Assembly (NCBI GenBank): GCA_022842935.1
Contig: JALHOP010000010.1
Location: 106,144-170,143, forward strand
From: Myxococcota bacterium
GTDB lineage: Bacteria > Myxococcota > XYA12-FULL-58-9 > JALHOP01
DNA length: 64,000 nt
Direction of reading: 5' to 3'
In this document: one piece after another, positions 10,080 through 62,686 of the stretch
Layout of the letters: each line of letters starts with the position of its first letter
How positions within the stretch are numbered: position 1 is the first letter of the stretch
Made by a program: the position numbers and the translations under genes
Notes under the pieces: generated by a model
The model's input: the letters and a program-made list of their open reading frames with translations, nothing else
What the model was told of the DNA's origin: nothing
The model's database searches: none

Positions 10080-12269
10080 CTAGTCGCGACCGGTGCGTTG
10101 ACGCACCAGCAGCGATAGTTTCTGGAGCTCTGCAGTCCCGCGCAGTGCGGCGAAGTCGGGGTCGGTCTCGAAGCTGGTGTTGGGAAAGCCCAGCTCGACC
10201 GAGCGGGAGAGATAAACGAGCGCAAGCTTACTGTCGCCCGCTATCGCGTAGTAGCAGGCGAGATTGTACGTGCCCCAGGTACTGTCCGTCGCCTTGGTGG
10301 CGCGCTCTGCTGCGGCGCGCGCCTCGTCTTTCTTCCCGGCGTGCTCGAGAGCGACGGCTTCGAGCGCGCAAGCGAACTGCGCGCTGCTACTCTTGCACCC
10401 AGTCGCGAAAGCCTGTCCCGCTTCCGCGTAACGTGACAGGCGCATGAACGAGAGACCGAGTGTCACATAGTTGCGCCACGAAAGCGGATTGAGTGCCACG
10501 GCTTGCTGAGCACGTTCGAGCGCATCATGCGGCCGGTCGAGCTCGCCAAGGCTCTCGGACAGCGACGCAACCGTCCAAGCGTTGGCCGGGTCGATGGACA
10601 GCGCCTCTTCGAGGACCGCGAGGCTTCGTGCCTTATCGCCGGTAACCCCTAGCGCAAGTGCGCGATAGCGCATCACCCACGCGCGTGCTGCGGGGGACAG
10701 GTCATCACGCTCGACGATGGAGGCGAAGAGGTCGAGCGCCGTCTTCATGTCACCGCGGCCATAAGCAAGGTAGGCACGGTAGAACGCCGAATACGGGTTT
10801 TTGGCGTCGATGGTCTCGAGCGCAGACATTGCCTCGCGTAGCTGCGCGGCATGTTCCGTCGAGGGGTCAGCGTCCCAGGCAAGCAGCAGCGCCTGCGTCC
10901 GTAGCGCGTGTGCCGCCATCTCTTGCGGAAAGGCGTTGACCAACCGAGCCGTCGATTCGAGAGCGCGGGCAGCGTCGCCCGTGCGAATGGCGCCCAGAGC
11001 GATGCTCGTGTCGGGCGAACGCGCCATGGCCGGGCCACCGGTCACATTACCGATATAGTCGTAGAGCCGCGGCAAGTCGGCGCCCATCTGCGTGGCGACC
11101 CCGCGTGACAGCTCGAGCGCAAGGCTCGAGAGGTCGTTGCTCGGACTGCTCGCTTGCGTACCCCAGACGATGCGGTTCTCTACGGCGTCGATGAGGTTGA
11201 GGTTGGCCTGCAGTTGCTCGCCGTTGCGGGTCACGGCGCCCGTGAGCATACGCCCCGCGCCGTGCTCGCGCGCGACCTGCGAGCGGTCCATGGCACCGGT
11301 GCCGAGCTCCGTCGCGTCGGGCACCGGCAGGACCTTCAGGCCCGCCAGGGCGAGATTGACCGCTATGGCTTCGGCGAAGGCGCGGCCGAGATACGCCGAG
11401 CCCTCGTTCTGACCACGCACCTCCATGGGCACGATAAGCACGGTGTGACCATCGATTTGGGGTGCCTTCTGGCGCTCGACGATTGTGACCGCGATTGCGG
11501 TCACGACACCAACGACCACGAGGGCCGCGAGCCAGCCCAGGCTACGACCGCGCCGCTGGACCTTGCTCGTCGGGCGCGGCACAGGCTTGGGGGCCGGCTG
11601 TACGTCGGGGGTCTCGGGGCCACGCTCGCGCTCGAGGTCGGCAGCTAGCGTGGCCGCCGACGCGTAACGCTGCTCGCGCTGCGGAGCCATCGCCTTCACG
11701 AGGATGCGCTCGACGCCAGCGGGCACCTGACCCGTGAGTGGCTTTGGCTTCGCGGAGATGATCTGCCGGGTAAGGTCTGAGCGGGAGCTACCCGGGAAAG
11801 CCCGTTGCCCGCTGAGCATTTCATAGAGAATGGCGCCAAGCGCGAAGATGTCGTCAGCGGCTTCGGCACGCCCGCCCTGCACCTGATCAGGGCTCTTGTA
11901 GGCGAGTGCGCCCAAGATGACGTCGGCCTTGCGGACGTGTGGTCGGCTTTGCGCCAGCTCCTCGAGCGCCGCGAACGTACGATTGCCATCCGCTGATAGC
12001 TCTTGGGTGATTCGCCTGCCCCGCGGCATGTCGTGAACATGGACGCGACCGTCAGCGCCGAGCTGGATGCTCGCCGGGCTCAGATCTCCATGCACCACGC
12101 CCCGCTCGTGGGCCTCACGCAGCTCGCGCGCGATTGCCAGCGCCACACGAAGGGCTTCAGGCGACCGCATGGCCCCGCGGCTTAGGCGGGCGTCCAGGGT
12201 TTCGTCGGCATGCGCGAGCATTTCCCCAACATACCGATGCGCGAATGGCCCCAGCAAGCAGGTAGACAC
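10080..12269 (-). CDS. Membrane-anchored Ser/Thr-kinase-like pseudokinase (C-lobe only, catalytic motifs degenerate) fused through one TM helix to a large TPR-repeat extracytoplasmic domain.
   Basis: HGDLSPASIQL replaces HRDLKPxN and HDM replaces DFG, but subdomain IX (DIFALGAILYEMLSG) is retained. TM helix LGWLAALVVVGVVTAIAVTIV. More than 8 TPR-like repeats C-terminally. Only 38 nt separate this gene from the next, so there is no room for an N-lobe. Confidence 0.7.
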   Translation of the reverse strand: MSTCLLGPFAHRYVGEMLAHADETLDARLSRGAMRSPEALRVALAIARELREAHERGVVHGDLSPASIQLGADGRVHVHDMPRGRRITQELSADGNRTFAALEELAQSRPHVRKADVILGALAYKSPDQVQGGRAEAADDIFALGAILYEMLSGQRAFPGSSRSDLTRQIISAKPKPLTGQVPAGVERILVKAMAPQREQRYASAATLAADLERERGPETPDVQPAPKPVPRPTSKVQRRGRSLGWLAALVVVGVVTAIAVTIVERQKAPQIDGHTVLIVPMEVRGQNEGSAYLGRAFAEAIAVNLALAGLKVLPVPDATELGTGAMDRSQVAREHGAGRMLTGAVTRNGEQLQANLNLIDAVENRIVWGTQASSPSNDLSSLALELSRGVATQMGADLPRLYDYIGNVTGGPAMARSPDTSIALGAIRTGDAARALESTARLVNAFPQEMAAHALRTQALLLAWDADPSTEHAAQLREAMSALETIDAKNPYSAFYRAYLAYGRGDMKTALDLFASIVERDDLSPAARAWVMRYRALALGVTGDKARSLAVLEEALSIDPANAWTVASLSESLGELDRPHDALERAQQAVALNPLSWRNYVTLGLSFMRLSRYAEAGQAFATGCKSSSAQFACALEAVALEHAGKKDEARAAAERATKATDSTWGTYNLACYYAIAGDSKLALVYLSRSVELGFPNTSFETDPDFAALRGTAELQKLSLLVRQRTGRD

Positions 12270-14564: not shown

Positions 14565-16241
<1,677 letters not shown>

Positions 16242-46979: not shown

Positions 46980-47801
46980 TTACAGACCTGTCCGCGCGAG
47001 GACACCTTGCAGCTCGCCGAAGCCCCGCAGTCGGTAGCCATAACGAGGGTTCTCCGGCCAAGCACCGCCGCCTCCGAGCAACAACGTCACGCCATGCTTC
47101 TCGCAGGCTGCGCCAACGCTTTCGACTTGCCGCTCCAAGTGCGACGCATCCGCAGAGATCGGGGAGGCCGAGAGCGCCACCATGCGAACGCTGCCCCCAG
47201 AGACAAAGCGTGTGAGCTCGGTGGTGGGGGTGTTGCGTCCTGCCCACCGGGGGAGCCAACCAGCCTCGCGCAGGCAAAGCTCGAGCAACGACAACCCGAA
47301 CGTATGCTGGTCACCCTCGGCTGTCGCGAGGAGACAGCGCGGGGCGTCGTCGCCGACCGGGAGAGATTCCGCAAGCATCGTCAGGCCGCGCTGCAGCACT
47401 TCACTCGCGAGATGCTCCTCGACAATCGTCATGCGGCCTTCCGTCCAGCGCTGACCCGCGGCATGGAGTACCGGACCGATCGCGTCGGCTACGCGCCACC
47501 AGCAGCCGCGCGCGGCGCGCTCGGTGAGTAACGCCGCTTGGACTTCGTAAGCGACGGCGTCGCTCGTGAGCAGGTCGAGCCAACGGTCGACATGCTCGGC
47601 GTGCGTCGGCATGCCCTTGTCGAGCCCGTTGCGGCGAGCGAACGCAGTCACTGTCGAGCGTGCGAAGCGCCGGTGCCCGCCAAGCGTCTTCACGCACTCG
47701 AGCTCGCCACTCTCGGTCCAGCGCTTTACCGTCGACGGTCCCACCCCGAGGGTGCTCGCGACCTCGCCGCTGGTAAGGAGCTCCGCAGAGTCGTCACCCA
47801 T
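46980..47801 (-). CDS. CarH/LitR-type light-responsive MerR-family regulator with a C-terminal adenosylcobalamin-binding domain.
   Basis: MerR HTH (LTSGEVASTLGVGPSTVKRWTESGEL). W-x9-EH photochemistry motif (WTEGRMTIVEEH). B12 DxHxxG (GDQHTFG), SxL (VALSAS) and GG (LLLGGGG) motifs. Confidence 0.8.
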   Translation of the reverse strand: MGDDSAELLTSGEVASTLGVGPSTVKRWTESGELECVKTLGGHRRFARSTVTAFARRNGLDKGMPTHAEHVDRWLDLLTSDAVAYEVQAALLTERAARGCWWRVADAIGPVLHAAGQRWTEGRMTIVEEHLASEVLQRGLTMLAESLPVGDDAPRCLLATAEGDQHTFGLSLLELCLREAGWLPRWAGRNTPTTELTRFVSGGSVRMVALSASPISADASHLERQVESVGAACEKHGVTLLLGGGGAWPENPRYGYRLRGFGELQGVLARTGL

Positions 47802-51509: not shown

Positions 51510-52154
51510 TCAGGGCTCGACAGGCGCCAGGTCGCTGACCAAGACCGCGCGCACCGGCGAAGCGTCGCCCTCCGCAATGCGCAGCGGCAGCGCGATGAGG
51601 GTGTAGAGGCCTGCAGGCACGTGGTCGAGCACGATGGACTCGAGCACTGCCATGTCGTGGCGTGCGATGGCGTTGTGAGCGGTCAAAGCGCGGTCGGCGA
51701 AGGGGTCGACCGAGGGAGTGTCGATACCGACGAGGCGGACGCCGCGGGCGGCAAGCTCGTCGACGAGCTCCGGCGACAGACTCGCGAAATCGGTGTTGAA
51801 CGTGTCGGGGTGAGGGAATGTTCCAGTCCGCAATAGAACACGCGGGGCGTGGATGCGTGCACCCTCGAGATGGGCGGGTGTGATGCGCTCGCCGCGACCG
51901 ATGTCGACGTGCACCACACTGCACGGTCCATAGTAGAGCGCGAGATCCCGCTCACCGATCGAGGCGCCGTCGCGCGCATAGTGGCTAGGCGCGTCCGCGT
52001 GAGCGCCAACGTGCAACGTCGACGTGACCGCCGAGAGCGTCAGGTTGTCTCCGCGGCGCATGTCCAGCGACACAACGCGAGCGAACTGGACATCACCCGG
52101 CCACACCGCAGTAGCGGACGAGAGCACGGGAGAGATGTCGATGATTGCGCTCAC
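51510..52154 (-). CDS. kynB: Kynurenine formamidase (cyclase-family arylformamidase).
   Basis: HVGAHADAPSH metal motif; RVLLRT, GVRLVGIDTPS, IALPLR and DASPVRAVL are collinear with bacterial KynB. GTG start overlaps the upstream stop (GTGA). Confidence 0.8.
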   Translation of the reverse strand: MSAIIDISPVLSSATAVWPGDVQFARVVSLDMRRGDNLTLSAVTSTLHVGAHADAPSHYARDGASIGERDLALYYGPCSVVHVDIGRGERITPAHLEGARIHAPRVLLRTGTFPHPDTFNTDFASLSPELVDELAARGVRLVGIDTPSVDPFADRALTAHNAIARHDMAVLESIVLDHVPAGLYTLIALPLRIAEGDASPVRAVLVSDLAPVEP

Positions 52155-53050
52155 CGGTCGAGGACGTTGCGATCGCCGCGATAGACTTCGACGTCGTCCT
52201 CGTCGAACTCGACGTTGGTCGCGCCCCGCTCCATCGGATTGAGCGAAACGACGGTCGCGCCGGTGCCCCAAATGGGTTCATAGGCCAGCACCCTCCCCTC
52301 GTAGTCGTTGTTCTGACCCATGAGAGCGGCGAGCCACCAGATGGCTTTGAAGCGTTGATCTGCGTTCGCCTCGCGGAAGAACTGGCGCGCGAGCTGCGAG
52401 ACGTCCTCCAGGCGACCGTTACCCAAGAACTCGAGAACCTTGCGGTTCCACTCGTCGTCCTTGAGAGAAGAGATCCGATCGGTCTTCGGGTCGATGAACT
52501 CGGTGACCATGCGATTCGACAGCTGCGTGACCGCGACCGCGATCACCTTCTTGCCGAGCTGCTCCGCCGCGTCGCGCGCCGCCTTGCCAAGTACGATGGT
52601 CTCAGCGCGATCCGCATACATGTTGCAGGACACCACGCATGCCGGGATGCGGTTCTCCGGGTTCAAGAGTTTGAGGGCCGTGATGGTGCCGGTGTCGATC
52701 GGGAAGCCGCGATACGCCACGGTGCGCGCAGTCAACCCGCGCTTCTTGGCGGCGGCCTCATAAGCCGCGGCGTATTCGGAGTCGATGACGAAGCTATAAG
52801 GAATTTCGCCCAGGTCGTGCCACTCCGGGTCGACGTGCACCCACGTGGGCTTTGGGTCCGCTTGGATCTGGTGGCCAATGACGGACAACCATTTGGTGCT
52901 GTAGATCATGATGAGATCGGCTTCCGAGGCCGCGATCTCTTCGCGCACCATTCCGAACGCATCCGCGAGCTTGCGATAGCCAGGGGCTGCGTCGGGCGTA
53001 AGCAAAGGCTGTGGCTTCCCGGGAACGATGTAACCACGCACGACGCTCAT
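52151..53050 (-). CDS. LigB-family class III extradiol dioxygenase, non-catalytic (AmnA-like alpha) subunit.
   Basis: LigB fold in which the iron-ligand histidines are replaced (PGKP and STKW instead of PHPP and SPHW). Confidence 0.6.
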   Translation of the reverse strand: MSVVRGYIVPGKPQPLLTPDAAPGYRKLADAFGMVREEIAASEADLIMIYSTKWLSVIGHQIQADPKPTWVHVDPEWHDLGEIPYSFVIDSEYAAAYEAAAKKRGLTARTVAYRGFPIDTGTITALKLLNPENRIPACVVSCNMYADRAETIVLGKAARDAAEQLGKKVIAVAVTQLSNRMVTEFIDPKTDRISSLKDDEWNRKVLEFLGNGRLEDVSQLARQFFREANADQRFKAIWWLAALMGQNNDYEGRVLAYEPIWGTGATVVSLNPMERGATNVEFDEDDVEVYRGDRNVLDR

Positions 53051-53931
53051 GCCGCCTCCATGTCCCAGCTCACGACTGCGTTGCCAGTCCCGATGACCGT
53101 CCCATAGGCGTGGACCTCGGCCGGTTGCGTTGGAAACCCCAGCGCCGACAACAAGAACGTGAGCGAGCCGGCACGAGCCTCACTTACCGATTGGTCGATG
53201 AAGTCTGGCATCTCGTCGAGGAGCTCGCGTGCTTTCCCGGTCTTCAGGAGCTTCACCACGTGCATGTCCCAGAGATATTGGTTGTGGTTGTAGATGCGCT
53301 CGTACGACATGTCTTCGGGAACACCGGGCTCGGTCGTGAAGTGGCGATGTGACAACGAGCACGACGAGATCACCAAGGCGCGGCGACCCAACTTCTCGAC
53401 GGCCCGTCGCGCGGCCTGCCCCAGGGCGATCATCTGCCTGTCGCCGACGTCATTGCCGAAGTAGTCATAGGCCGCGTTGGCGGACACGCCGACGATAGGT
53501 TTGTCCCAGTCAGGGTTCACCATATGGCAAGCAGTGATGGTGCCGTAGTCCACGCGAAACTTCTCGTTCCGCATCATCTTGGTCACGAGACCTTGCGCAG
53601 CCGCCTCGGCACACATTGCCTCCGCCAATGGCACGTCGACCTTCAAGTCGTAGTGATAGCGAAACAGATTCGGGAAAATGGGGTCGACGGACAGTGACTT
53701 GAAGTGGGGAACTCCGAGGAAGTGGTGCCCCACGACGGTTCGCCAGTGGGGCGAGTGGACGATGATGACGTCGTAGTCCTTCTTCTTGAGCTTCGCCCGC
53801 AATGCTTCGTATCCCCAGCGCAGTACGTCCCAACCGCCTTCGGCGCGCGGCTCGTTCTGCTTGGGATTGTCGGCATAAACCAAGTGCGGTGGGTGCGGGG
53901 CGAGCGCCCCCATCACGATACGTCCACTCAT
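53047..53931 (-). CDS. LigB-family class III extradiol dioxygenase, catalytic (AmnB-like beta) subunit of the 2-aminophenol-1,6-dioxygenase type.
   Basis: LAPHPPHLVY, IIVHSPHW and SHRHF retain the LigB iron-ligand and catalytic histidines. Confidence 0.7.
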   Translation of the reverse strand: MSGRIVMGALAPHPPHLVYADNPKQNEPRAEGGWDVLRWGYEALRAKLKKKDYDVIIVHSPHWRTVVGHHFLGVPHFKSLSVDPIFPNLFRYHYDLKVDVPLAEAMCAEAAAQGLVTKMMRNEKFRVDYGTITACHMVNPDWDKPIVGVSANAAYDYFGNDVGDRQMIALGQAARRAVEKLGRRALVISSCSLSHRHFTTEPGVPEDMSYERIYNHNQYLWDMHVVKLLKTGKARELLDEMPDFIDQSVSEARAGSLTFLLSALGFPTQPAEVHAYGTVIGTGNAVVSWDMEAA

Positions 53932-54052
53932 GAGCTAGCCCTCTCGGTTGGTGCGTTCACCGGAGATGCACAAACGAGCCAAACACGAAGCACCGTACGC
54001 GCGTGACGGACGTGAGACGGGCTATGCGCTCGCTTCGGCTCGCGGAACCAAC

Positions 54053-55492
54053 TCATAGCGCCACACAGACGTTACGCGCTTCGCTGAAGGTCTCGAGCGA
54101 ATACACTCCGCCTTCGCGGCCAAGGCCACTGTCTTTCATGCCACCGAAAGGCACGCGCAGGTCGCGCATCATCCAGGTGTTGACCCAAACCATGCCGCTG
54201 TCGATGGCAGCGGCGACGCGATGAGCGCGAGAGAGATCGCGCGTCCACACCGAGGCAGCCAGACCGTAGCGAACTTCGTTGGCCATGCTGATGGCGCGGG
54301 CATCGTCATCGAATGGATGCACGGTCACGACCGGACCGAAGATCTCTTCGGTCGCGGCACGCGCTTTGGACGATAGACCGGTAATGATGGTTGGCTCGAG
54401 GAAAAACCCATTCGCGAGCGGCCCCGGCAGCCTTGGTCGCCCTCCACCGTGAGCGATCTTGCCACCCTCCTCCAAGGCTAGCTTGATGTAGCCCTCGACC
54501 TTCTCGCGATGCGCAGCCGACACCAGGGCGCCGAGCTGCGTCGAGGGGTCCTTGGGATCACCGATGCGCATCTTGGCGAGGCGTCGGGTCATGCCCTCCA
54601 CGACCTCGTCGTGGATCGACTGCTCGACCAATACGCGTGAGCCACACAAACAGATCTGACCTTGGTTGGTGAACCCTGCCCGTACCGCGCCCTCGATTGC
54701 CTTAGCGCGGTCGGCGTCCGCGAAAACGATCGTGGGGTTCTTGCCACCAAGCTCGAGCGATGTCTTGCGAAAGGACGCAGCCGTCGCTTCGGCGACTTTT
54801 GCGCCAGTTTGTGTGCCGCCAGTGAAGGATACGAGCTTCACATCGCGATGGCGGACCAACGCGTCGCCAGCCTCGGCGCCGTAACCGTGCACGACATTGA
54901 AGACGCCTGGAGGCAACCCCACATCGCGCACGATGTCGGCCAGTGCATGCGCGGTCAAAGGCGTAAGCTCGCTAGGCTTACAGACGACCGTGTTGCCCAT
55001 GGCCAGCGCCGGTGCGGCTTTCCACGACAGCAAGTAGAGAGGAAGATTCCAAGGCGTGATGAGCGCACAGACGCCAACCGGCTTACGTAGCGTGTAGTTG
55101 ATAGCGGACTGATCGACAGGATGACACCCTGGGCTATCGTGCAATACCGCATTCGCGAAGAAGCGAAAGTTCGCGATGGCACGGGGGATGTCCATGCTCG
55201 CGGCCAGTGCTACGGGTTTTCCCGTATCGAGCGACTCCAGATTCGTGAGCTCTTCAGCACGCGCCTCGAGCCTCTCGGCAATGCGCAAGAGGTAGCGTGA
55301 GCGCTCTTGCGTCGATAGGCGCGACCAACCGGGCTGGGCTTCGCGCGCGGCCGCAACGGCAGCATCGACCTCGGCTTGCCCCGACCGCGGTACCCAAGCG
55401 ACGACCTCGCCAGTGGCGGGGGAGACGTCGTCGATACTCGACGCGGTACTCTTCCACTCGCCAGCGATGAAGTTTCGAATCTCACGCATCAT
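54053..55492 (-). CDS. NAD-dependent aldehyde dehydrogenase of the 2-hydroxy/2-aminomuconic-semialdehyde dehydrogenase type.
   Basis: ELGGKNP and CLCGSR catalytic motifs; 479 aa. Confidence 0.85.
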   Translation of the reverse strand: MMREIRNFIAGEWKSTASSIDDVSPATGEVVAWVPRSGQAEVDAAVAAAREAQPGWSRLSTQERSRYLLRIAERLEARAEELTNLESLDTGKPVALAASMDIPRAIANFRFFANAVLHDSPGCHPVDQSAINYTLRKPVGVCALITPWNLPLYLLSWKAAPALAMGNTVVCKPSELTPLTAHALADIVRDVGLPPGVFNVVHGYGAEAGDALVRHRDVKLVSFTGGTQTGAKVAEATAASFRKTSLELGGKNPTIVFADADRAKAIEGAVRAGFTNQGQICLCGSRVLVEQSIHDEVVEGMTRRLAKMRIGDPKDPSTQLGALVSAAHREKVEGYIKLALEEGGKIAHGGGRPRLPGPLANGFFLEPTIITGLSSKARAATEEIFGPVVTVHPFDDDARAISMANEVRYGLAASVWTRDLSRAHRVAAAIDSGMVWVNTWMMRDLRVPFGGMKDSGLGREGGVYSLETFSEARNVCVAL

Positions 55493-55498
55493 GCGACC

Positions 55499-56674
55499 TC
55501 ACAGCGCGTTACCGCCGCCTTTCATCGCGTCCCAAGACGAGGAGCCGAAGCCTTCGCCTGGACCGCTCATGCCGAACTGCTCGGCCTGTGCTTGCCAGTC
55601 GTAGTACCAGCGGTCGCGGTCCGGATCCCATTCGTCCCACGTCGGGATCTTGTCGAGCGTGGAGACACGGTCCTTGGGCACGACGCCGGGCACGATGAAG
55701 GCCTTCTGCTTGTAGAGCGGATACGGGTTGCGTAGCTCGAAGCCAAGCACGCCGAGCACCGCCCGGGCGATGTACCAGGTCGCCTGCGGGTTCCAACCGT
55801 GAGCGATCTTGATCATGACGCCCAAGCCGTCCGGGAAGTCGTCGTGGATGATCGAGAGGGCGAGCAGACCGTCGGCACCCTCTTTCGCGATGACCTTGCC
55901 GCCACAGGCCTTCATCACCGTGCTGTCGAGACGATTGAAGCCGCCGACGAGATCGGGGTGCTCGATCATCGAAGCCCAGATCCAGTCTTCGTCGCGCGTC
56001 GCCGCGAGTCCAGCGAAGACCTTGGCAAGCTCGCCGACAGTCATCGACACGGTGGGAAAACCATCGCCGTCGCGCGCGACCCGCAGCGGCTGCCATTCGG
56101 CACCGAGAAAGCGCCGCACCTGCTGCATGTAAGCCTGGAAGAATGGGTGGCGTGGCAGCGTATACCCAACACGGCTCCAGTTCTTGAGGCGACATCCCTT
56201 CAAGATGGCGGCGTGTTGACCCGAGCTGTTGTTGTACCAACGTCGCGGCCGGCGCACCTGGCGCCCGAACTGCACGAGCGGGACGTCGAGAGGAGTCTGC
56301 ATGAGGCCCCACTCGGACGGGTCGAGCAGCGATTGGGCGGCTGCCACATGTTCGGCCGTTCCATTGTGCGAAGCGACCGCGATCGCGCGTTGCTTGGAGT
56401 TGGTGACGGGCTCGAGGTCCTTGGCGAAGACCTTGAGCATCACCGGCTTCATGCAGCTGCGGCCATAACAAAGCACGTTGCCGCCAAACGAGTGGATGAT
56501 GCGGTCGCCCGACGCCCACGCAACCGCGCCGTGAATCGTCGTCTCGGAGACCCCGTTGCGTCGGTAGTCGACGAGCGGCTGCCACTCGACATCGCGGCCG
56601 GTGGGAATGCGCGCGTCTGAGTCGCCCAGAGGTGAAACGGGATAAACGTCCCGGCCTACGGTTGGCATGGTCAT
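55499..56674 (-). CDS. Asparaginase-II-family (PF06089-like) amidohydrolase with a C-terminal extension; tentative assignment.
   Basis: GRSCMKPVML and GGKVIAKEGADG patterns. ATGA overlap with the LLM gene. Confidence 0.4.
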   Translation of the reverse strand: MTMPTVGRDVYPVSPLGDSDARIPTGRDVEWQPLVDYRRNGVSETTIHGAVAWASGDRIIHSFGGNVLCYGRSCMKPVMLKVFAKDLEPVTNSKQRAIAVASHNGTAEHVAAAQSLLDPSEWGLMQTPLDVPLVQFGRQVRRPRRWYNNSSGQHAAILKGCRLKNWSRVGYTLPRHPFFQAYMQQVRRFLGAEWQPLRVARDGDGFPTVSMTVGELAKVFAGLAATRDEDWIWASMIEHPDLVGGFNRLDSTVMKACGGKVIAKEGADGLLALSIIHDDFPDGLGVMIKIAHGWNPQATWYIARAVLGVLGFELRNPYPLYKQKAFIVPGVVPKDRVSTLDKIPTWDEWDPDRDRWYYDWQAQAEQFGMSGPGEGFGSSSWDAMKGGGNAL

Positions 56675-57876
56675 GAGCGCGAGACCCTCGGGATCACTGC
56701 TTCGACGAAGTGCTTCATGTTGTCGATGACACGCGCGTTGTCGTGATTGAAGAAGTCGAACCAGAGCATCAACCGGTCGTCCGCGTGAAAGCGCGTCTTC
56801 ATCTGCTCTGCGATGGTCTCGGGGTCGCCGATCAAGGCGTTGTCGGCGGCGTTCGCGACCTTCTTGGGGTCGAGCGTGCCCTCGAGCGCGGTCCAGTAGG
56901 CGCCCAGCGCCTTGCGCGCCGCCTCCTGTGCCTTGCCTTTGTCCTTGTCGATGAACACGAACGTGGTGCGCGGCATGTACCAGCGCTTCCAGCCGCCGCC
57001 GTCCGGATGAAACGCCTTCTGGAGACGCGTGTGCGTCTGCTCGATGACCTCGGGCGCCGTAATCGAGAGGTTGAAGACGTGCGCCGGCATGAACTTGTTG
57101 GCGAGCTCCTGCGACGCCGCATCGTGCGAACCGACCACCAGCTGCAAGAGCCTGCGATCGAAGTCCTGCGGGATGATCTTGAGCTGCTCGAAGGTCCAGC
57201 GCCGCGGCAACACGAATGCGTCGCCCTTCTCGACGAACCCTTCGGCGCGCGCCGCAGCAACCACCTTCTGCCAGTCTTCGTCGTTGCGAAACAGCGAGCG
57301 CGTCAGCAGCGGCTGGGTGACCTCGTCGCTCGACAACACGTCACCGCGCAGCAAGCGGCAAAAAATCTCCACCGCTTCAGCAAACACGAGACCTTTGACT
57401 ACGGGCCAGGCGGCTCTTTCCGTCGCGTTGCGCGGCATCACGCCGTAGGCGCGGTTCATGAAGTCGAACCGGCCAGCCGAGAAGCCGACGTTCAAACGCC
57501 GCTTCTCGCCGCTGCGAAGGCCGTGCAGCGCCGCGAAGTACGCGATACGTTCCGCGGCCGCGACCGGACCGCCATTGCAGACGATGTTCATGACCGCGCT
57601 ACCAACTTCGATCGTCTTGGTGCGTGCGAACACCTGGTGGGCGAGCTGTGTGATGTCGCAGTTCAGCCCGACCTCGCCGCGCCAGTGCGGGATGACCGGC
57701 TCGCGGTTCCTCTTTTGTACCTCGCTCGACAGGTGCGACTCGGCGACCCACGCCGTCCCGAAGCCCAAGGCGTCGGCTGCCTCGACCTGCGCAAAGAAGC
57801 TCTTGAACATCTCGGCTTCGCTCGGGACCGCGCCATCGACGGGGGTTTGGCTGATGGAGAAGAAAACGTCGTAGCG
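56671..57876 (-). CDS. Luciferase-like (LLM-class) flavin-dependent monooxygenase.
   Basis: TIM-barrel LLM signature (AWVAESHL). The start is set at MRYDVFF (ATG 57876); the longer ORF upstream has non-coding-like composition. Confidence 0.75.
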   Translation of the reverse strand, partial: RYDVFFSISQTPVDGAVPSEAEMFKSFFAQVEAADALGFGTAWVAESHLSSEVQKRNREPVIPHWRGEVGLNCDITQLAHQVFARTKTIEVGSAVMNIVCNGGPVAAAERIAYFAALHGLRSGEKRRLNVGFSAGRFDFMNRAYGVMPRNATERAAWPVVKGLVFAEAVEIFCRLLRGDVLSSDEVTQPLLTRSLFRNDEDWQKVVAAARAEGFVEKGDAFVLPRRWTFEQLKIIPQDFDRRLLQLVVGSHDAASQELANKFMPAHVFNLSITAPEVIEQTHTRLQKAFHPDGGGWKRWYMPRTTFVFIDKDKGKAQEAARKALGAYWTALEGTLDPKKVANAADNALIGDPETIAEQMKTRFHADDRLMLWFDFFNHDNARVIDNMKHFVEAVIPRVSRS

Positions 57877-57889
57877 CATGCCAAGACCC

Positions 57890-58672
57890 CTAGATGCTCT
57901 GGAGGCGGCCACCATCGGCCGCGAGACTGACACCACGGATAAACGAGGCGAGCGGTGAGGCGAGGAAGACGATGGCGGCCGCGATCTCGTCCGCCGTGCC
58001 GAGGCGCTTTTCGGGCACCGCGGAGAGCCACTCGGCGAGCACAGCGTCGCCCGAAATGCCGCGACGCTTGCCTGCCCCTTCGCGCAGCTCGAGCATGCGC
58101 TCCGTGTCAGTGTAGCCCGGCAAGACGTTGTTGATGGTGACGCCCGGCGGCAGCTCACGCGACAGTGTCTTCGCCCAACCAGCCACTGCGGCGCGGCAGA
58201 TGTTCGAGACGCCGAGGCCCGCGATCGGCTCCTTCACCGAGGTCGACACGACGTTGATGATGCGTCCATAGCCGGCGCTCACCATGGCTGGGACGACGAG
58301 CTTGGTGATGGCGTGCGGCGTAAGCACCAGCCGCCCCATCGCCTTGAGGATCGCGCCTTCGTCAGCTTCGAGCAGCGGACCACCGGGTGGACCACCGGTG
58401 TTGTTCACCAAGACGTGGACCGGCGCACGCGCAACGACCTCTCTGACCTTGGCGACCGTTGCATCACGCTCGTCGAGGTCGGCAGCCAGAGTCTCGACAC
58501 CCGCGGCTCCTGCCTTCGTCAGCTCGCCAGCGAGGAGGTCAAGCGCGTCCTGGCGTCGGGCGACGATGGTAAGCCTCGCCCGGGCCGAGGCAAAGCCAAA
58601 CGCGGCGGCTCGACCGATGCCGCGGCTCGCGCCGAAGAGCAAAACGTGTTTGCCGCCGAGGTCCATCTGCAT
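57890..58672 (-). CDS. Short-chain dehydrogenase/reductase (SDR).
   Basis: GASRGIG cofactor motif and Y-x3-K active site. Confidence 0.85.
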   Translation of the reverse strand: MQMDLGGKHVLLFGASRGIGRAAAFGFASARARLTIVARRQDALDLLAGELTKAGAAGVETLAADLDERDATVAKVREVVARAPVHVLVNNTGGPPGGPLLEADEGAILKAMGRLVLTPHAITKLVVPAMVSAGYGRIINVVSTSVKEPIAGLGVSNICRAAVAGWAKTLSRELPPGVTINNVLPGYTDTERMLELREGAGKRRGISGDAVLAEWLSAVPEKRLGTADEIAAAIVFLASPLASFIRGVSLAADGGRLQSI

Positions 58673-58684
58673 GCGGACCGCGGT

Positions 58685-59320
58685 CTATCCCGTCAGGATG
58701 GTCTCGGCAATCTCTCGCGGATGGCCGACCAGATGGTCGGCGCCGGCCCTTTCGAGCTCATCGCGGCCTCGGATCCCGTAGGTGCATCCAATCGTGCGCG
58801 CGCCATAGGCCTTACCCGTCAGGACGTCGACCGCGCTGTCACCGACCATCCAGACCTGGGCGAACCTGCGCGCGCCAACCAGCTGCGCGATGACCTCGCG
58901 CGATGGCTTCTTGAACGCCCAGGTATCGCCGCCGCCGACTGCCTCGAAGCGCCGCAGCATGCCGAAGTGCTCGAGCATCTGAAGCACGAACCGCTCCGAC
59001 TTGTTGCTCGCGACCGCGAGCCGACAGCCTCGAAGGGCGTCGAGCATGCTTTCGACCCCGTCGTAGGGCGCGGAGGTGGCGAACATGAGCCTCTCGTAGT
59101 GTGCCCTGTAGCAGCGCTTGAGCTCCTCGTGCGCGACACCCGTCGGCAGCGCCTCGGCGATGAGATGATCGAGGCCTTCGCCGATCCATGTACGGACGGT
59201 GTGAGGATCGACAGCGGAGCCGCCCAGCTCGACGCGCGCGGCCGACAGCGCAGCGGCAATATCACCCAGCGTGTCCACCAGGGTGCCGTCGAAGTCGAAA
59301 ACCACGAGCGCTTCTGTCAT
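58685..59320 (-). CDS. HAD-family hydrolase (phosphoglycolate-phosphatase-like).
   Basis: VVFDFDGTLVDT motif I; C-terminal GDS motif. Confidence 0.8.
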   Translation of the reverse strand: MTEALVVFDFDGTLVDTLGDIAAALSAARVELGGSAVDPHTVRTWIGEGLDHLIAEALPTGVAHEELKRCYRAHYERLMFATSAPYDGVESMLDALRGCRLAVASNKSERFVLQMLEHFGMLRRFEAVGGGDTWAFKKPSREVIAQLVGARRFAQVWMVGDSAVDVLTGKAYGARTIGCTYGIRGRDELERAGADHLVGHPREIAETILTG

Positions 59321-59340
59321 CACGTCTCCAGAACGCAACA

Positions 59341-59377
59341 AAGCCCCCGTTCACTTCACTCGTGTGAACGGGGGCTT
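59341..59377 (-). terminator. Perfect 14-bp hairpin (AAGCCCCCGTTCAC / GTGAACGGGGGCTT, 9-nt loop) downstream of the TonB-dependent receptor gene and about 20 bp upstream of the HAD start.
   Basis: Perfect inverted repeat. A T/G-rich tract follows it on the minus strand. Confidence 0.55.
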
Positions 59378-59408
59378 CGTTAAGTGTGGTCGGAGAGCTA
59401 ACCGAAAG

Positions 59409-62400
59409 CTAGAAGCTGTAGCGAAGCGCGAACTGCACGGTCAGGGGCGCTTGATACTGCGTTGGCTGCCGGTAGTTCGGGTTGACGCGCACCGGCCGGC
59501 CGTCGACCGTTCGCACGTGCCGCAGATCGCTACGACGACCGTTGACGATGGGGTCAGCGTCCTCGAACGTGTACGTGTCGTCGACGCGCGTCGCGCCCTG
59601 ATTGTTGGTGACATTGTAGATGTCAGTGCGGAAGTCGAGGTACTGCAACGGCTCGATCTGATAGCGAATCGTCGCGCTGACGTCCGCGCTCCAGATCCAC
59701 GGCGTACGACCACCCTCACCCCGCTTGATCAGGAAGGCCTCGTCGGTGCCATAGGCAGGATCTGAGCCCAGCGCGTCGTACGGTCGCCCGCTGCTCGCAT
59801 TGATACCGGCGCCGGGGATGATGATGATCGGGAGCGAGCTGCCGAGCTTGCGCAGGTCACCCTGATAGAAGCCGAAAAACTTGAGCCGATGACGCTGATC
59901 TTGCGGCAGGTAACCGCTGCGATTCACCAGCAGGGTCGGAAGATCGTAGGTCGTCGTAATGTTGGGGTCGAGCTGACCGTTGTTCTCGGAGAACAACCCC
60001 GGGAAGTTACCGCGCGTCCACGACAACAGGTACGACGCCTGAATCTGGAAGTCGTTCCGGAAGCGCTTGTCGAGGTTGAACTGAATCGCAAGATAGCGAC
60101 GCACGGGTTTCGGGAAGTTGTTGATCGCAGCCAAGCGGTTGCGCAGCTGCTGCAGTCGTCCGCGCTTTAGTGGGTCCGTCTCGCGGGCGATATCTTGGTC
60201 AACGTCCTCAAGTCGGTTGACGTCGAACTCACCCGGGTTTGCGACGAGATACGTCGAGCCGCCGTCGGTCGACACGTCTTCGATACCGCGACCGAGGTTA
60301 CGGTGAATGGCCGTAATGGCACCAACCCAGCTCGGCAGGAACTCAACCTGCGCGCCCAGCTGGACTTCCTCGGTGTACTGGCCCTTGAGCCCGGGTGCGA
60401 CCAAGCCCGAGGTCTGGCCAAACGCAAGCCGCCGATAGAACTGCGCACATTGCTGCACGACATCCGTGACCAGGTTCGGATCGCCTGCGCAGCGTCCCGT
60501 GCCCACCGTGCCGGGCGCGCCAGCCCCAGCGCCCGTTGGATTCAGTCGGTAGTCGGTGATGCCGATACCTTCACCGCCGAACTGACGGTCGGTGATGTCG
60601 AGCGGGATCTGCTGGTAGAAGCGGCCCCAATTGGCGAAAATCTTCGAACGGCCGCCACCGAGGAAGTCCCAGGTACCGCCGAAACGCGGAGCCCAGTTGT
60701 CCCAAATCGCCAGGCTCTCAACGCGGTCGCCGGTCGCCCCGGTGTAGTCGAGACCAAACAGCTGTTGTCCTTCCCAGCGGACACCAGCGTTGATGGTGAT
60801 GTTCGACGTTGGGTTCCACGAGTCCTGAAGGAAGGCCGCCCAGGTGCGTCCAGCGGTATCGCCGACGACGCCGCGCGGGTCGGGTCTGCCGCTGATGTCC
60901 TCGTTCGGGCGGAAGTACGATTGCTCGCGAATGCGGTCGTCGCCGTTGGCGTAGAAATCCGCAGTCACCGTCTTGAAACCGCCTCCGCCGTAGCGGCGGC
61001 GGTTGTAGTAGGCGTTCTGTTCGAAATCGATACCGTACTTGAGCTGATGGAGACCGGCGAAGTTGCCGATGTGGGTGATCGAGAGTCGCTCGGCGAACCG
61101 GTCCGCGACGGTGGTCTTGACGTTGCCGAGACCGTAGCCGTTCACACCGTAGCCTTGCACGACGCAGCGGCTCTGGCCGTTCGCAAAGTCGGCACCGGCC
61201 TGGCATTCGGGAGCATCGACACCTGGCGTTGCGGACGCACCCCACTGAGCCGCGACATCGCGATAGTTACGCGCGTAGTTGTAGCTGTAGAGCGCCGAGC
61301 CAGGTCCGTCACCGGCCACCGGCTTGATGATGCTCTCGTTATGGAACCAGCCGAACGAGCCATCGAGCTGCAGCTTGTTGTCGAAGAACTTACCGGTAAT
61401 TCGGTAGAGCGCCGACATGTTGCCCGCATTTTCTTTGTAGCGAGCTGAGTTCGGCGCGTTGTTCAGATCGATGATATCCGGGTTACTGGCGAAGGGATTC
61501 TGGCGAATACCCTTGAAATACGTCGGCGCGCCGGTGACCGAAAGCGAGTGACGCAGGTTGCTGTTGATGAGGTGGGTCAGCTTGCCGGTGAATTGGTGCG
61601 ACAAGACGTTCGAGTCGAAACGATCGCTCGCGACGTCTTCGGTGACGAACGCACCATCGGCGTCGAGGAGCGCGTTGCCGTCCGCGCCTGGGACGCGTGC
61701 ACGCAGGGTCCGTGTCCAGCGGTCCTGCTGGAACTCGGGCGCGTAGCCCGCGTGGAACCACAGCTTGTCCTTGATGATCGGACCGCCGATCTCAAAACCA
61801 GCATTGAGATAGTGACCAAGCTTCTGGCTCTCGGCAATCGACTCGCCAGCGCGATTGATGCGCTTCGACGTGCGCGACAAGAAGCCCGGCCGCCAGTAGG
61901 TGAAGACCGTCCCGTGAAACTCGTTGCCACCGCTCTTGGTGATCGCTTCGACGTATCCACCGGTCGCGCGACCGAACTCGGGCTGATACCCACCTTCCTT
62001 GATGTTTACTTGCTCGACGAACTCGAGCACCAAGCGTTGGCCCTGCAAGCCGTACCCGATGTCATTGGTCGACAAGCCGTCGATCATGAATTGGTTTTCG
62101 GGCGAGGTGGTGCCACCAATCGAGGTACCAAATCGGTCGTTGCTCGCAGACGGCAACACGTTGATGGCGCTGGAGATGTCGCGGGTCCGACCCAACGGCA
62201 CGCTCTCGATGAACTCGCGCGTCACCGTCGTTCCCACGGTCGTCGACGAAACGTCGACCGAAGGGGCCGGAGCCTCGACGGTCAAAACCTCACCCTGCGC
62301 CTGTGAGGTCGCAAGACGGATGTCGACGGTCACTGTTTGGCCCGCCAGGACGCGAACGCCTGTGCGCTCGACGGCAACCCCAGCAAACGAGTAGTTGATG

Positions 62401-62639
62401 CGGTACTCGCCGCTTGGCAGATTGGTGATGACGTAGCGACCATTTTCGTCGCTCAAGGCCACTTCTTCGCCTTGCAGTGCGGTGGATGTCGCAACGATCG
62501 TCGCACCCGAGAGCGGTGCATTGTTGTTGTCAGGATCCGTGACGGTGCCGCGGAGGGCGCCGGTCACGGATTGCGCGTGGGCCGTCGTCGCCGACAAACC
62601 GACGAGGGCGATGGCAGCTACAAGAAGACGCATTTTCAT
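59409..62639 (-). CDS. Oar-like TonB-dependent outer-membrane receptor with an N-terminal carboxypeptidase-regulatory-like domain.
   Basis: Signal peptide (MKMRLLVAAIALVGLSATTAHAQ), CarboxypepD_reg-like N-terminus, plug and barrel. C-terminal ...FALRYSF with a terminal aromatic residue. Confidence 0.85.
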   Translation of the reverse strand: MKMRLLVAAIALVGLSATTAHAQSVTGALRGTVTDPDNNNAPLSGATIVATSTALQGEEVALSDENGRYVITNLPSGEYRINYSFAGVAVERTGVRVLAGQTVTVDIRLATSQAQGEVLTVEAPAPSVDVSSTTVGTTVTREFIESVPLGRTRDISSAINVLPSASNDRFGTSIGGTTSPENQFMIDGLSTNDIGYGLQGQRLVLEFVEQVNIKEGGYQPEFGRATGGYVEAITKSGGNEFHGTVFTYWRPGFLSRTSKRINRAGESIAESQKLGHYLNAGFEIGGPIIKDKLWFHAGYAPEFQQDRWTRTLRARVPGADGNALLDADGAFVTEDVASDRFDSNVLSHQFTGKLTHLINSNLRHSLSVTGAPTYFKGIRQNPFASNPDIIDLNNAPNSARYKENAGNMSALYRITGKFFDNKLQLDGSFGWFHNESIIKPVAGDGPGSALYSYNYARNYRDVAAQWGASATPGVDAPECQAGADFANGQSRCVVQGYGVNGYGLGNVKTTVADRFAERLSITHIGNFAGLHQLKYGIDFEQNAYYNRRRYGGGGFKTVTADFYANGDDRIREQSYFRPNEDISGRPDPRGVVGDTAGRTWAAFLQDSWNPTSNITINAGVRWEGQQLFGLDYTGATGDRVESLAIWDNWAPRFGGTWDFLGGGRSKIFANWGRFYQQIPLDITDRQFGGEGIGITDYRLNPTGAGAGAPGTVGTGRCAGDPNLVTDVVQQCAQFYRRLAFGQTSGLVAPGLKGQYTEEVQLGAQVEFLPSWVGAITAIHRNLGRGIEDVSTDGGSTYLVANPGEFDVNRLEDVDQDIARETDPLKRGRLQQLRNRLAAINNFPKPVRRYLAIQFNLDKRFRNDFQIQASYLLSWTRGNFPGLFSENNGQLDPNITTTYDLPTLLVNRSGYLPQDQRHRLKFFGFYQGDLRKLGSSLPIIIIPGAGINASSGRPYDALGSDPAYGTDEAFLIKRGEGGRTPWIWSADVSATIRYQIEPLQYLDFRTDIYNVTNNQGATRVDDTYTFEDADPIVNGRRSDLRHVRTVDGRPVRVNPNYRQPTQYQAPLTVQFALRYSF

Positions 62640-62686
62640 GTCAGCAAGTCCTCGAAGTGTGCTTTTGCGGGCAGGCATTGTCGGCG

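Follow-up and report, generated by a model that had tools for sequence, protein, structure and literature searches.

The question raised by an operon of eight genes at positions 51510-59320 of a 64,000-nucleotide stretch of contig JALHOP010000010.1 (assembly GCA_022842935.1, a Myxococcota bacterium; the whole stretch is termed the window) is how kynurenine could be converted to the substrate of a 2-aminophenol-type ring-cleaving dioxygenase. The conserved gene set, as defined from this operon and related loci, comprises tryptophan 2,3-dioxygenase (TDO) and a formamidase on the one hand, and AmnB, AmnA, an AmnC-like aldehyde dehydrogenase (ALDH) and an AmnD-like RidA protein on the other hand, but the enzymes that normally act between these two groups are absent. 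Because these enzymes are absent, an atypical short-chain dehydrogenase/reductase (SDR), a luciferase-like monooxygenase (LLM) and an asparaginase-II-like hydrolase (ASN) are left to turn kynurenine into the AmnBA substrate. With a probability that we put at about one half, the operon codes for an aerobic route of tryptophan/kynurenine catabolism that is as yet undescribed and in which the early kynurenine pathway runs into 2-aminophenol meta-cleavage. The same even weight is given to the proposal that, in a widespread route, a Baeyer-Villiger flavoenzyme and an asparaginase-fold hydrolase cut kynurenine to aspartate and 2-aminophenol, so that kynurenine 3-monooxygenase (KMO), kynureninase, 3-hydroxyanthranilate 3,4-dioxygenase (HAAO) and 2-amino-3-carboxymuconate-6-semialdehyde decarboxylase (ACMSD) are bypassed.

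Proposed pathway

In the proposed pathway, tryptophan would be converted to N-formylkynurenine by TDO, the gene for which would lie outside the window and is present in many orthologous clusters (step 1). The formyl group would be removed by the KynB-type formamidase, either at this stage or after step 4 (step 2). LLM would insert an oxygen atom between the aromatic ring and the side-chain carbonyl group of kynurenine or N-formylkynurenine by a Baeyer-Villiger reaction with aryl migration, using reduced flavin that is possibly supplied by the atypical NADPH-type SDR (step 3). The product of this step would be the 2-aminophenyl beta-ester of L-aspartate, which might be converted to N4-(2-hydroxyphenyl)-L-asparagine by an O-to-N acyl shift. 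ASN would split this beta-aspartyl derivative into L-aspartate and 2-aminophenol by asparaginase chemistry with another leaving group (step 4). The ring of 2-aminophenol would be opened by the AmnB/AmnA pair to 2-aminomuconate-6-semialdehyde (step 5), which would be oxidized to 2-aminomuconate by ALDH (step 6) and deaminated to 2-oxohex-3-enedioate by a RidA-type deaminase, which is encoded in most related clusters but not in the window (step 7). For steps 1, 2 and 5-7, homology bears out the family assignments; for steps 3 and 4 we infer the chemistry, and for the SDR the role.

Conversion of kynurenine (Ar-CO-CH2-CH(NH2)-COOH) to Ar-OH needs insertion of oxygen between the aryl and carbonyl groups and subsequent hydrolysis, so that LLM and ASN make a chemically coherent pair. 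The LLM flavoenzyme group includes type II Baeyer-Villiger monooxygenases as well as luciferase, and hydrolysis of a beta-aspartyl bond by class-3 asparaginases proceeds via a serine acyl-enzyme. 2-Aminophenol would be the simplest intermediate, because ACMSD is absent and because the dioxygenase and the dehydrogenase are closest to the 2-aminophenol and 2-aminomuconate semialdehyde enzymes. A role of the operon in NAD (quinolinate) biosynthesis was considered and rejected, because ALDH and RidA indicate catabolism and the cleavage product of 2-aminophenol cannot yield quinolinate.

Formamidase, dioxygenase and aldehyde dehydrogenase

All eight gene families of the operon are confirmed by Pfam. 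The cyclase matches the kynurenine formamidases 4cog and 4cob in the PDB with an E value of ~1e-50 (best 1.2e-50), carries the HxGxHxDxPxH metal motif, and scores 219.9 bits against TIGR03035, just under the cutoff of 223.05. Its assignment as a KynB-type kynurenine formamidase, which had already been proposed in the first-pass annotation, is judged from these similarities to be solid.

The catalytic LigB protein (LigBc) matches 3vsg_B (CnbCb, the 2-amino-5-chlorophenol enzyme) with an E value of 3.5e-108 over residues 1-293, and 8ihg_A (beta subunit of 2-aminophenol 1,6-dioxygenase) with an E value of 2.3e-105 over its full length. It keeps the His ligand motifs PHPPH (in ALAPHPPHL) and SPHW, and also contains the SEARAG motif. 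The non-catalytic paralog (LigBn) matches the alpha subunits 7txy_A and 3vsg_A with E values of 4.6e-54 and 4.5e-50, respectively, and has lost the His ligands, such that PHPPH is replaced by PGKPQP and SPHW by STKW (G/K/Q and K for the ligands). Both the retention of these motifs in one subunit and their loss in the other agree with what had been read from the sequence before. Identification of the LigB pair as an AmnB/AmnA-type 2-aminophenol 1,6-dioxygenase with a catalytic and a non-catalytic subunit is therefore solid at the level of homology. The same is true for ALDH, which is assigned as a 2-aminomuconate-6-semialdehyde dehydrogenase of the AmnC/NbaE type, as previously suggested, because it matches such dehydrogenases in the PDB with an E value of 1.6e-148. 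It scores 608 bits against TIGR03216, the model for 2-hydroxymuconic semialdehyde dehydrogenase, under the cutoff of 693.

3-Hydroxyanthranilate, which had been named in the first-pass annotation as a substrate of the dioxygenase, is an unlikely one, because ACMSD is absent from the conserved set and because the enzyme is close to those acting on 2-aminophenol and 2-amino-5-chlorophenol. Judged by this relationship, 2-aminophenol is more likely to be the substrate. The earlier claim that canonical enzymes are missing holds: no KMO, PLP-dependent kynureninase, cupin-type HAAO or ACMSD family is detected by Pfam among the operon genes, in the annotated flanks or among the annotated neighbors that recur in related loci. 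Likewise, 4-oxalocrotonate decarboxylase, hydratase and aldolase are absent from the operon, the annotated flanks and the annotated recurrent neighbor families.

Conservation of the gene set

ASN homologs with 72-96% identity are found among metagenomic proteins labelled Myxococcota, Planctomycetota, Latescibacterota and Thermoanaerobaculia. A scan of genomes for ASN, with one genome per species, gave 326 loci, and 80 of the 326 were examined. ASN is 69-96% identical in these 80 loci, which belong to Bdellovibrionota (about 34), Marine Group II/III archaea (about 23), Myxococcota, Planctomycetota, Holophagae and the isolate Sulfidibacter corallicola M133. The open reading frames (ORFs) of the loci were clustered without prior labels and then labelled against the window proteins, and the counts were taken over 85 loci, many of which are cut by contig ends. 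ASN is detected in 84 of the 85 loci, LigBc in 69, ALDH in 66, LLM and LigBn in 63 each, SDR in 58, RidA in 50, TDO (PF03301) in 27, a formyltransferase-like protein in 18, the cyclase in 17, and the haloacid dehalogenase-type (HAD) phosphatase in 4.

Where at least 8 kb is available on both sides of ASN (36 loci), all six core genes are present in 23 loci. This number is a lower bound, because the filter for labelling and overlap drops some genes in favor of overlapping spurious ORFs in GC-rich DNA. The typical gene order is SDR-LLM-ALDH-LigBc-LigBn-ASN-RidA in Bdellovibrionota (18 loci) and TDO-SDR-LLM-ASN-ALDH-LigBc-LigBn-RidA-formyltransferase-like, with a divergent hydrolase gene upstream, in archaea (12 loci). 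To avoid the circularity of counts anchored on ASN, the search was also anchored on LLM. Three independent long contigs found in this way carry LLM-ASN-ALDH-LigB-LigB::RidA (fusion)-cyclase, and TDO-SDR lies directly upstream in one of them. Recurrence of the same six core genes across related loci indicates that their grouping is not due to chance, and the cluster is conserved, with 70-96% identity, in Myxococcota, Bdellovibrionota, Planctomycetota, Acidobacteriota, Latescibacterota and Marine Group II/III archaea.

The TDO gene, where detected, lies within or beside the cluster. This result strengthens the earlier suggestion of a new catabolic branch for a tryptophan-derived compound. In three loci (L085-L087), RidA is fused to the AmnA-like subunit, which ties the 2-aminomuconate deaminase to the dioxygenase. 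These LigB::RidA (Ribonuc_L-PSP) fusion proteins of 471-532 amino acids, which occur in several lineages, are encoded at 16161-17759 of L085, 16600-18045 of L086 and 14707-16122 of L087; a fusion of this kind at 13382-14953 of L016 is indicated solely by an ORF of 524 amino acids. Two ORFs of ~210 amino acids without a Pfam match are present in L085, one between LLM and ASN (11242-11874) and the other between the LigB genes (15532-16164).

The clusters of Marine Group II/III archaea do not contain the KynB-type cyclase. They contain a formyltransferase-like protein of 238 amino acids (PF00551) at the 3' end (e.g. L042, 15765-16481) and a small alpha/beta hydrolase of 162 amino acids, the gene for which is divergent from that for TDO (e.g. 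L015, 1492-1980). Either of these two proteins could be responsible for deformylation of N-formylkynurenine in archaea.

Candidate enzymes for conversion of kynurenine to 2-aminophenol

LLM scores 45.1 bits against Pfam Bac_luciferase (cutoff 27.9), and its orthologs from different phyla are 60-66% identical. A sequence search of the PDB with LLM gave no usable match (best E value 0.23). An AF2 model built from 40 orthologs has a pLDDT of 90.6, and a Foldseek search with this model finds LLM-type TIM barrels, many of them matched with a probability of 1.0, at a sequence identity of 14-17%. Among the structures found are luciferases, RslO1, MsnO8, the monooxygenase (OX) domain of a polyketide synthase/non-ribosomal peptide synthetase (PKS/NRPS) and 3,6-diketocamphane monooxygenase, a type II Baeyer-Villiger enzyme, together with sulfonate monooxygenases and F420 enzymes. 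LLM is proposed as a candidate Baeyer-Villiger monooxygenase for kynurenine or N-formylkynurenine. No Fre/HpaC-type flavin reductase is recognized in the cluster, and the SDR is only a candidate for this function.

The loci of Holophagae and Sulfidibacter without LLM and SDR were checked for a replacement such as a type I Baeyer-Villiger monooxygenase, and the neighboring genes are those for riboflavin synthesis and unrelated ones. In the Sulfidibacter corallicola locus (L025, 11153-16436), LigB-LigB-ASN lies beside ribBA and a lumazine-binding riboflavin synthase gene, and no SDR or LLM gene is nearby. The Holophagae locus (L077, 11128-16318) has the same neighboring ORF families, as identified by ORF clustering only.

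ASN matches PF06089 with an E value of 1.6e-45 (155.9 bits, cutoff 25) and the class-3 asparaginases of Rhizobium etli, ReAIV and ReAV, distantly (2e-16). It shares with ReAIV and ReAV the fold family and both Ser-Lys tandems: S73, K76, S102 and K264, which are invariant in 84 orthologs, correspond to Ser48-Lys51 and Ser80-Lys263 of ReAV. S73 thus corresponds to Ser48, the accepted nucleophile of ReAV (PMC12951835). A zinc ion of ReAV anchors the alpha-amino and alpha-carboxy groups of L-Asn (PMC12951835). The Cys-Lys-Cys zinc site of ReAV is replaced by S150, Q153 and D204 in ASN of the window, and the zinc-ligand positions of the ASN orthologs covary in three states, C-E-C (17 orthologs), S-Q-D (33, including that of the window) and S-H-D (34). 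This distribution suggests that the metal anchor for the amino-acid end of the substrate has been lost or remodelled repeatedly. The three states match taxonomy only loosely. ASN also differs from ReAIV and ReAV in that it has a conserved C-terminal extension, and in that its orthologs are always embedded in an aromatic catabolic cluster. ASN is proposed as a candidate hydrolase for a beta-aspartyl aryl ester or amide, releasing L-aspartate and 2-aminophenol. The possibility that ASN is merely an alternative formamidase was rejected, because it co-occurs with KynB in the operon of the window and in others.

The SDR belongs to the family to which it had been assigned before, but is not a canonical dehydrogenase: its GxxxGxG motif is normal, and the catalytic YxxxK motif is replaced by S156-N-x-x-R160. 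None of S156, N157, R160 and R39 varies among 57 orthologs, and the invariant Arg39 suggests that the enzyme uses NADP(H). The nearest structures are those of uncharacterized Burkholderia SDRs sharing the SNxxR motif, 6jh7, which likewise lacks the Tyr residue, and BacG (YwfH). BacG is an ene-reductase, the substrate of which is an olefin in conjugation with a 2-oxo acid.

Two candidate roles are considered for the SDR. It may be the NADPH:flavin reductase partner of LLM, because its gene usually lies next to that of LLM and, in split clusters, is mostly found with it, and because no other reductase is clustered. Alternatively, it may be an ene-reductase that converts 2-oxohex-3-enedioate (or 2-aminomuconate) to 2-oxoadipate, because it is related to BacG-type SDRs without the catalytic Tyr and because the genes of the lower meta-pathway are absent. 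Correlation of the presence or absence of the SDR with that of LLM as compared with ALDH does not discriminate between these two roles.

Points against the proposed pathway and alternative explanations

Several observations weigh against the proposed pathway. Neither TDO nor a RidA-type deaminase is detected by tblastn in the 64-kb window. The fold of LLM is not more similar to Baeyer-Villiger enzymes than to sulfonate monooxygenases and F420 enzymes. The residues of ASN in the window that correspond to the zinc anchor of ReAV are replaced by S/Q/D, which weakens the case for recognition of an aspartyl moiety. To our knowledge, no classical-type SDR functions as a flavin reductase for an LLM, and the presence of BacG among the structural matches of the SDR points to a downstream role instead.

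The first alternative is that LLM replaces KMO and hydroxylates kynurenine at C3, that AmnBA cleaves the resultant 3-hydroxykynurenine, and that ASN acts as a C-C (retro-Claisen) hydrolase on the acyl-substituted ring-fission product, from which L-aspartate is released and 2-aminomuconate semialdehyde or 2-aminomuconate remains. This route would use the same conserved genes with the same link to TDO and KynB, would supply AmnBA with a compound that is itself an o-aminophenol, and would account both for a hydrolase with an aspartate-recognizing fold and for the dispensability of ACMSD. It is nevertheless considered unlikely, because we know of no aromatic hydroxylation by a member of the LLM family, because C-C hydrolysis is unprecedented for Ser-Lys hydrolases of PF06089, and because the enzymes to which the dioxygenase can be aligned from end to end take small 2-aminophenols.

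According to the second alternative, the operon is an ordinary aminophenol or nitroaromatic cluster of the amn/nbz/cnb type without any tie to tryptophan, in which the cyclase, LLM, SDR and the amidase-like protein would feed in another arylamine or an N-acyl-aminophenol. The strong homology to AmnB, AmnA and AmnC, the score of the cyclase 3 bits under the equivalog cutoff for KynB, and the lack of TDO in the window are all consistent with such a cluster. Clustering of TDO in 27 of the 85 loci and the absence of lower genes of the amnEFGH type are not, and the cluster is carried by predatory bacteria and protein-degrading marine archaea, not by degraders of xenobiotics. In addition, the very high conservation of 70% or more across domains argues for a common natural substrate. 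This explanation is given only a slight chance.

The operon is very improbable as a tailoring cassette for a secondary metabolite derived from anthranilate or aminophenol, a function that the first-pass annotation had also offered: enzymes of the LLM, SDR and HAD types are frequent in biosynthetic clusters, but neither the flanks nor the conserved neighbors contain NRPS, PKS or other core biosynthetic genes, and the set is common to bacterial phyla and archaea and is conserved alongside the catabolic ALDH and RidA genes even in marine archaea with small genomes. It is just as hard to believe that the genes are adjacent but functionally unrelated, with ASN as a true asparaginase and LLM and SDR as general scavenging enzymes, because the lack of identified promoters and the 121-nt gap that divides the operon are outweighed by 4-nt overlaps within the operon and by co-occurrence across phyla and domains, whether anchored on ASN or on LLM.

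Comparison with known pathways

The proposed pathway, in which kynurenine is converted to 2-aminophenol, can be compared with the amn/nbz/cnb pathway for 2-aminophenol or 2-amino-5-chlorophenol in Pseudomonas, Comamonas and Burkholderia. Both have a two-subunit LigB dioxygenase with an inactive paralog, a 2-aminomuconate-6-semialdehyde dehydrogenase and, in the related loci of the cluster studied here, a RidA-family 2-aminomuconate deaminase. The amn/nbz/cnb pathway is fed by reduction of nitroarenes, whereas the cluster studied here is apparently fed by tryptophan, since TDO and KynB are clustered. This cluster differs also in that it lacks the genes for 4-oxalocrotonate decarboxylase, hydratase and aldolase, adds the conserved SDR, LLM and ASN, and is found in archaea and predatory bacteria.

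With the bacterial kynurenine pathway (kynA/kynB/kynU or nba-type), the cluster shares KynB, the 2-aminomuconate-6-semialdehyde dehydrogenase and, in related loci, TDO and the RidA-type deaminase, as well as a presumed end at 2-aminomuconate or 2-oxohex-3-enedioate. It differs in the absence of KMO, PLP-dependent kynureninase, cupin-type 3-hydroxyanthranilate dioxygenase and ACMSD, and in ring cleavage of the AmnBA type. The side chain of kynurenine is released as alanine in the kynurenine pathway, whereas it is predicted to be released as aspartate here. The system would be a variant of the kynurenine pathway that merges with the Amn pathway.

In the 4-hydroxyacetophenone pathway of Pseudomonas fluorescens ACB, a Baeyer-Villiger monooxygenase (HAPMO) and an aryl esterase convert an aryl ketone through an aryl ester to a phenol, which is then subjected to ring cleavage. 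The logic of ketone, ester and phenol proposed here is the same. However, HAPMO is a single-component type I Baeyer-Villiger monooxygenase dependent on FAD and NADPH, whereas the candidate here is a type II-like LLM, and the ester hydrolase would have an asparaginase fold and release an amino acid as the acid. No description of the gene set or of its chemistry was found in the full-text literature, the coverage of which leaves out most subscription journals; within this range, the claim that the composition is unlike that of any described pathway stands.

Known routes for kynurenine breakdown use kynureninase and lead to anthranilate or 3-hydroxyanthranilate. If the proposed pathway is correct, it would represent a third way of kynurenine breakdown, through types of reaction that have had no link to tryptophan so far. 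The usual view of the 2-aminophenol meta-cleavage enzymes is that they are recent adaptations to nitroaromatic pollutants, and the proposed pathway would provide a natural, non-xenobiotic role and origin for 2-aminophenol dioxygenases. It would also give functions to three as yet unassigned subfamilies, the very divergent LLM, the class-3-asparaginase-like hydrolase and the SDR without catalytic Tyr, and would require reannotation of amino-acid catabolism in abundant marine archaea and predatory bacteria.

Organization of the operon and its flanking regions

The positions of the eight genes, the exact starts of which were set by alignment with homologs and by tblastn, are listed in Table 1. 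The eight consecutive ORFs are tightly packed on the minus strand in the order and with the spacing described earlier, except that the longest gap is 121 nt instead of 120 bp. The genes overlap by 4 nt at LLM/ASN, LigBc/LigBn and LigBn/cyclase, and are separated by 6-12 nt at HAD/SDR, SDR/LLM and ASN/ALDH.

Table 1. Positions of the operon genes and adjacent elements in the window
Feature	Position	Strand	Remarks
HAD-IA phosphatase, phosphoglycolate-phosphatase-like	58685-59320	-	First operon gene; ATG start, GGAG ribosome-binding site
SDR, atypical, NADP(H)-type	57890-58672	-	Pfam adh_short
LLM, divergent luciferase-like (group C) flavin monooxygenase, 402 aa	56671-57879	-	Pfam Bac_luciferase
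ASN, Asparaginase_II-like, class-3 Rhizobium etli type serine hydrolase	55499-56674	-	PF06089
ALDH, 2-aminomuconate-6-semialdehyde dehydrogenase (AmnC/NbaE type)	54053-55492	-	Matches to 2-aminomuconate-6-semialdehyde dehydrogenases in PDB
Intergenic gap between ALDH and LigBc, 121 nt	53932-54052	.	No element recognized
LigBc, catalytic LigB, beta subunit (AmnB/CnbCb type)	53047-53931	-	Matches to 3vsg_B, 8ihg_A
LigBn, non-catalytic LigB, alpha subunit (AmnA/CnbCa type)	52151-53050	-	Matches to 7txy_A, 3vsg_A
Cyclase, KynB-type kynurenine (aryl)formamidase	51510-52154	-	Last operon gene; TIGR03035, 4cog/4cob
Strong hairpin between TonB-dependent-receptor-like gene and operon	59342-59376	-	RNA folding

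The 121-nt gap contains no Rfam match and no promoter-like or terminator-like site. Scans of the operon for promoters and terminators gave nothing above chance, and the search against Rfam gave nothing. A TonB-dependent-receptor-like gene (59409-62678, 1089 amino acids) is located upstream of the operon. Folding of the region between this gene and the operon (59322-59408) gives -42.1 kcal/mol (z = -5.2 as compared with shuffled sequences), and the hairpin in this region, which directly follows the stop codon of the TonB-dependent-receptor-like gene, has a GC-rich stem of 13 bp and a weak T tract. The hairpin is not called by a simple terminator scan because of its 9-nt loop and weak T tract. 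It is probably the terminator of the upstream gene and marks the 5' boundary of the operon. Because the hairpin ends only ~20 nt before the start codon of the HAD gene, almost no space is left for a separate promoter. Downstream, the unit is limited by a convergent thioredoxin-TPR gene.

The HAD protein matches Pfam HAD_2 with an E value of 1e-29 and scores far below the cutoffs of the NCBIfam phosphoglycolate phosphatase models. Its inclusion in the pathway, as had been assumed in the first-pass annotation, is not supported, because the four loci that contain it are the window and its three closest relatives (75-81% identical). It is treated as a lineage-specific addition, or as a housekeeping gene that shares the transcript, and is placed outside the conserved set.

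Among the flanking genes are those for a histone-deacetylase-family protein, an Mpo1-like protein, an epimerase and a B12-binding MerR regulator. No kynurenine-pathway function is found in the annotated flanks, and NRPS, PKS and other core genes of biosynthesis are likewise absent from them. The regulator gene (46980-47801, minus strand) encodes a MerR-type helix-turn-helix domain fused to B12-binding domains, an architecture like that of the light-responsive regulator CarH, and adjoins the genes for a zinc-type alcohol dehydrogenase and a protein with an epimerase/polyketide-cyclase domain.

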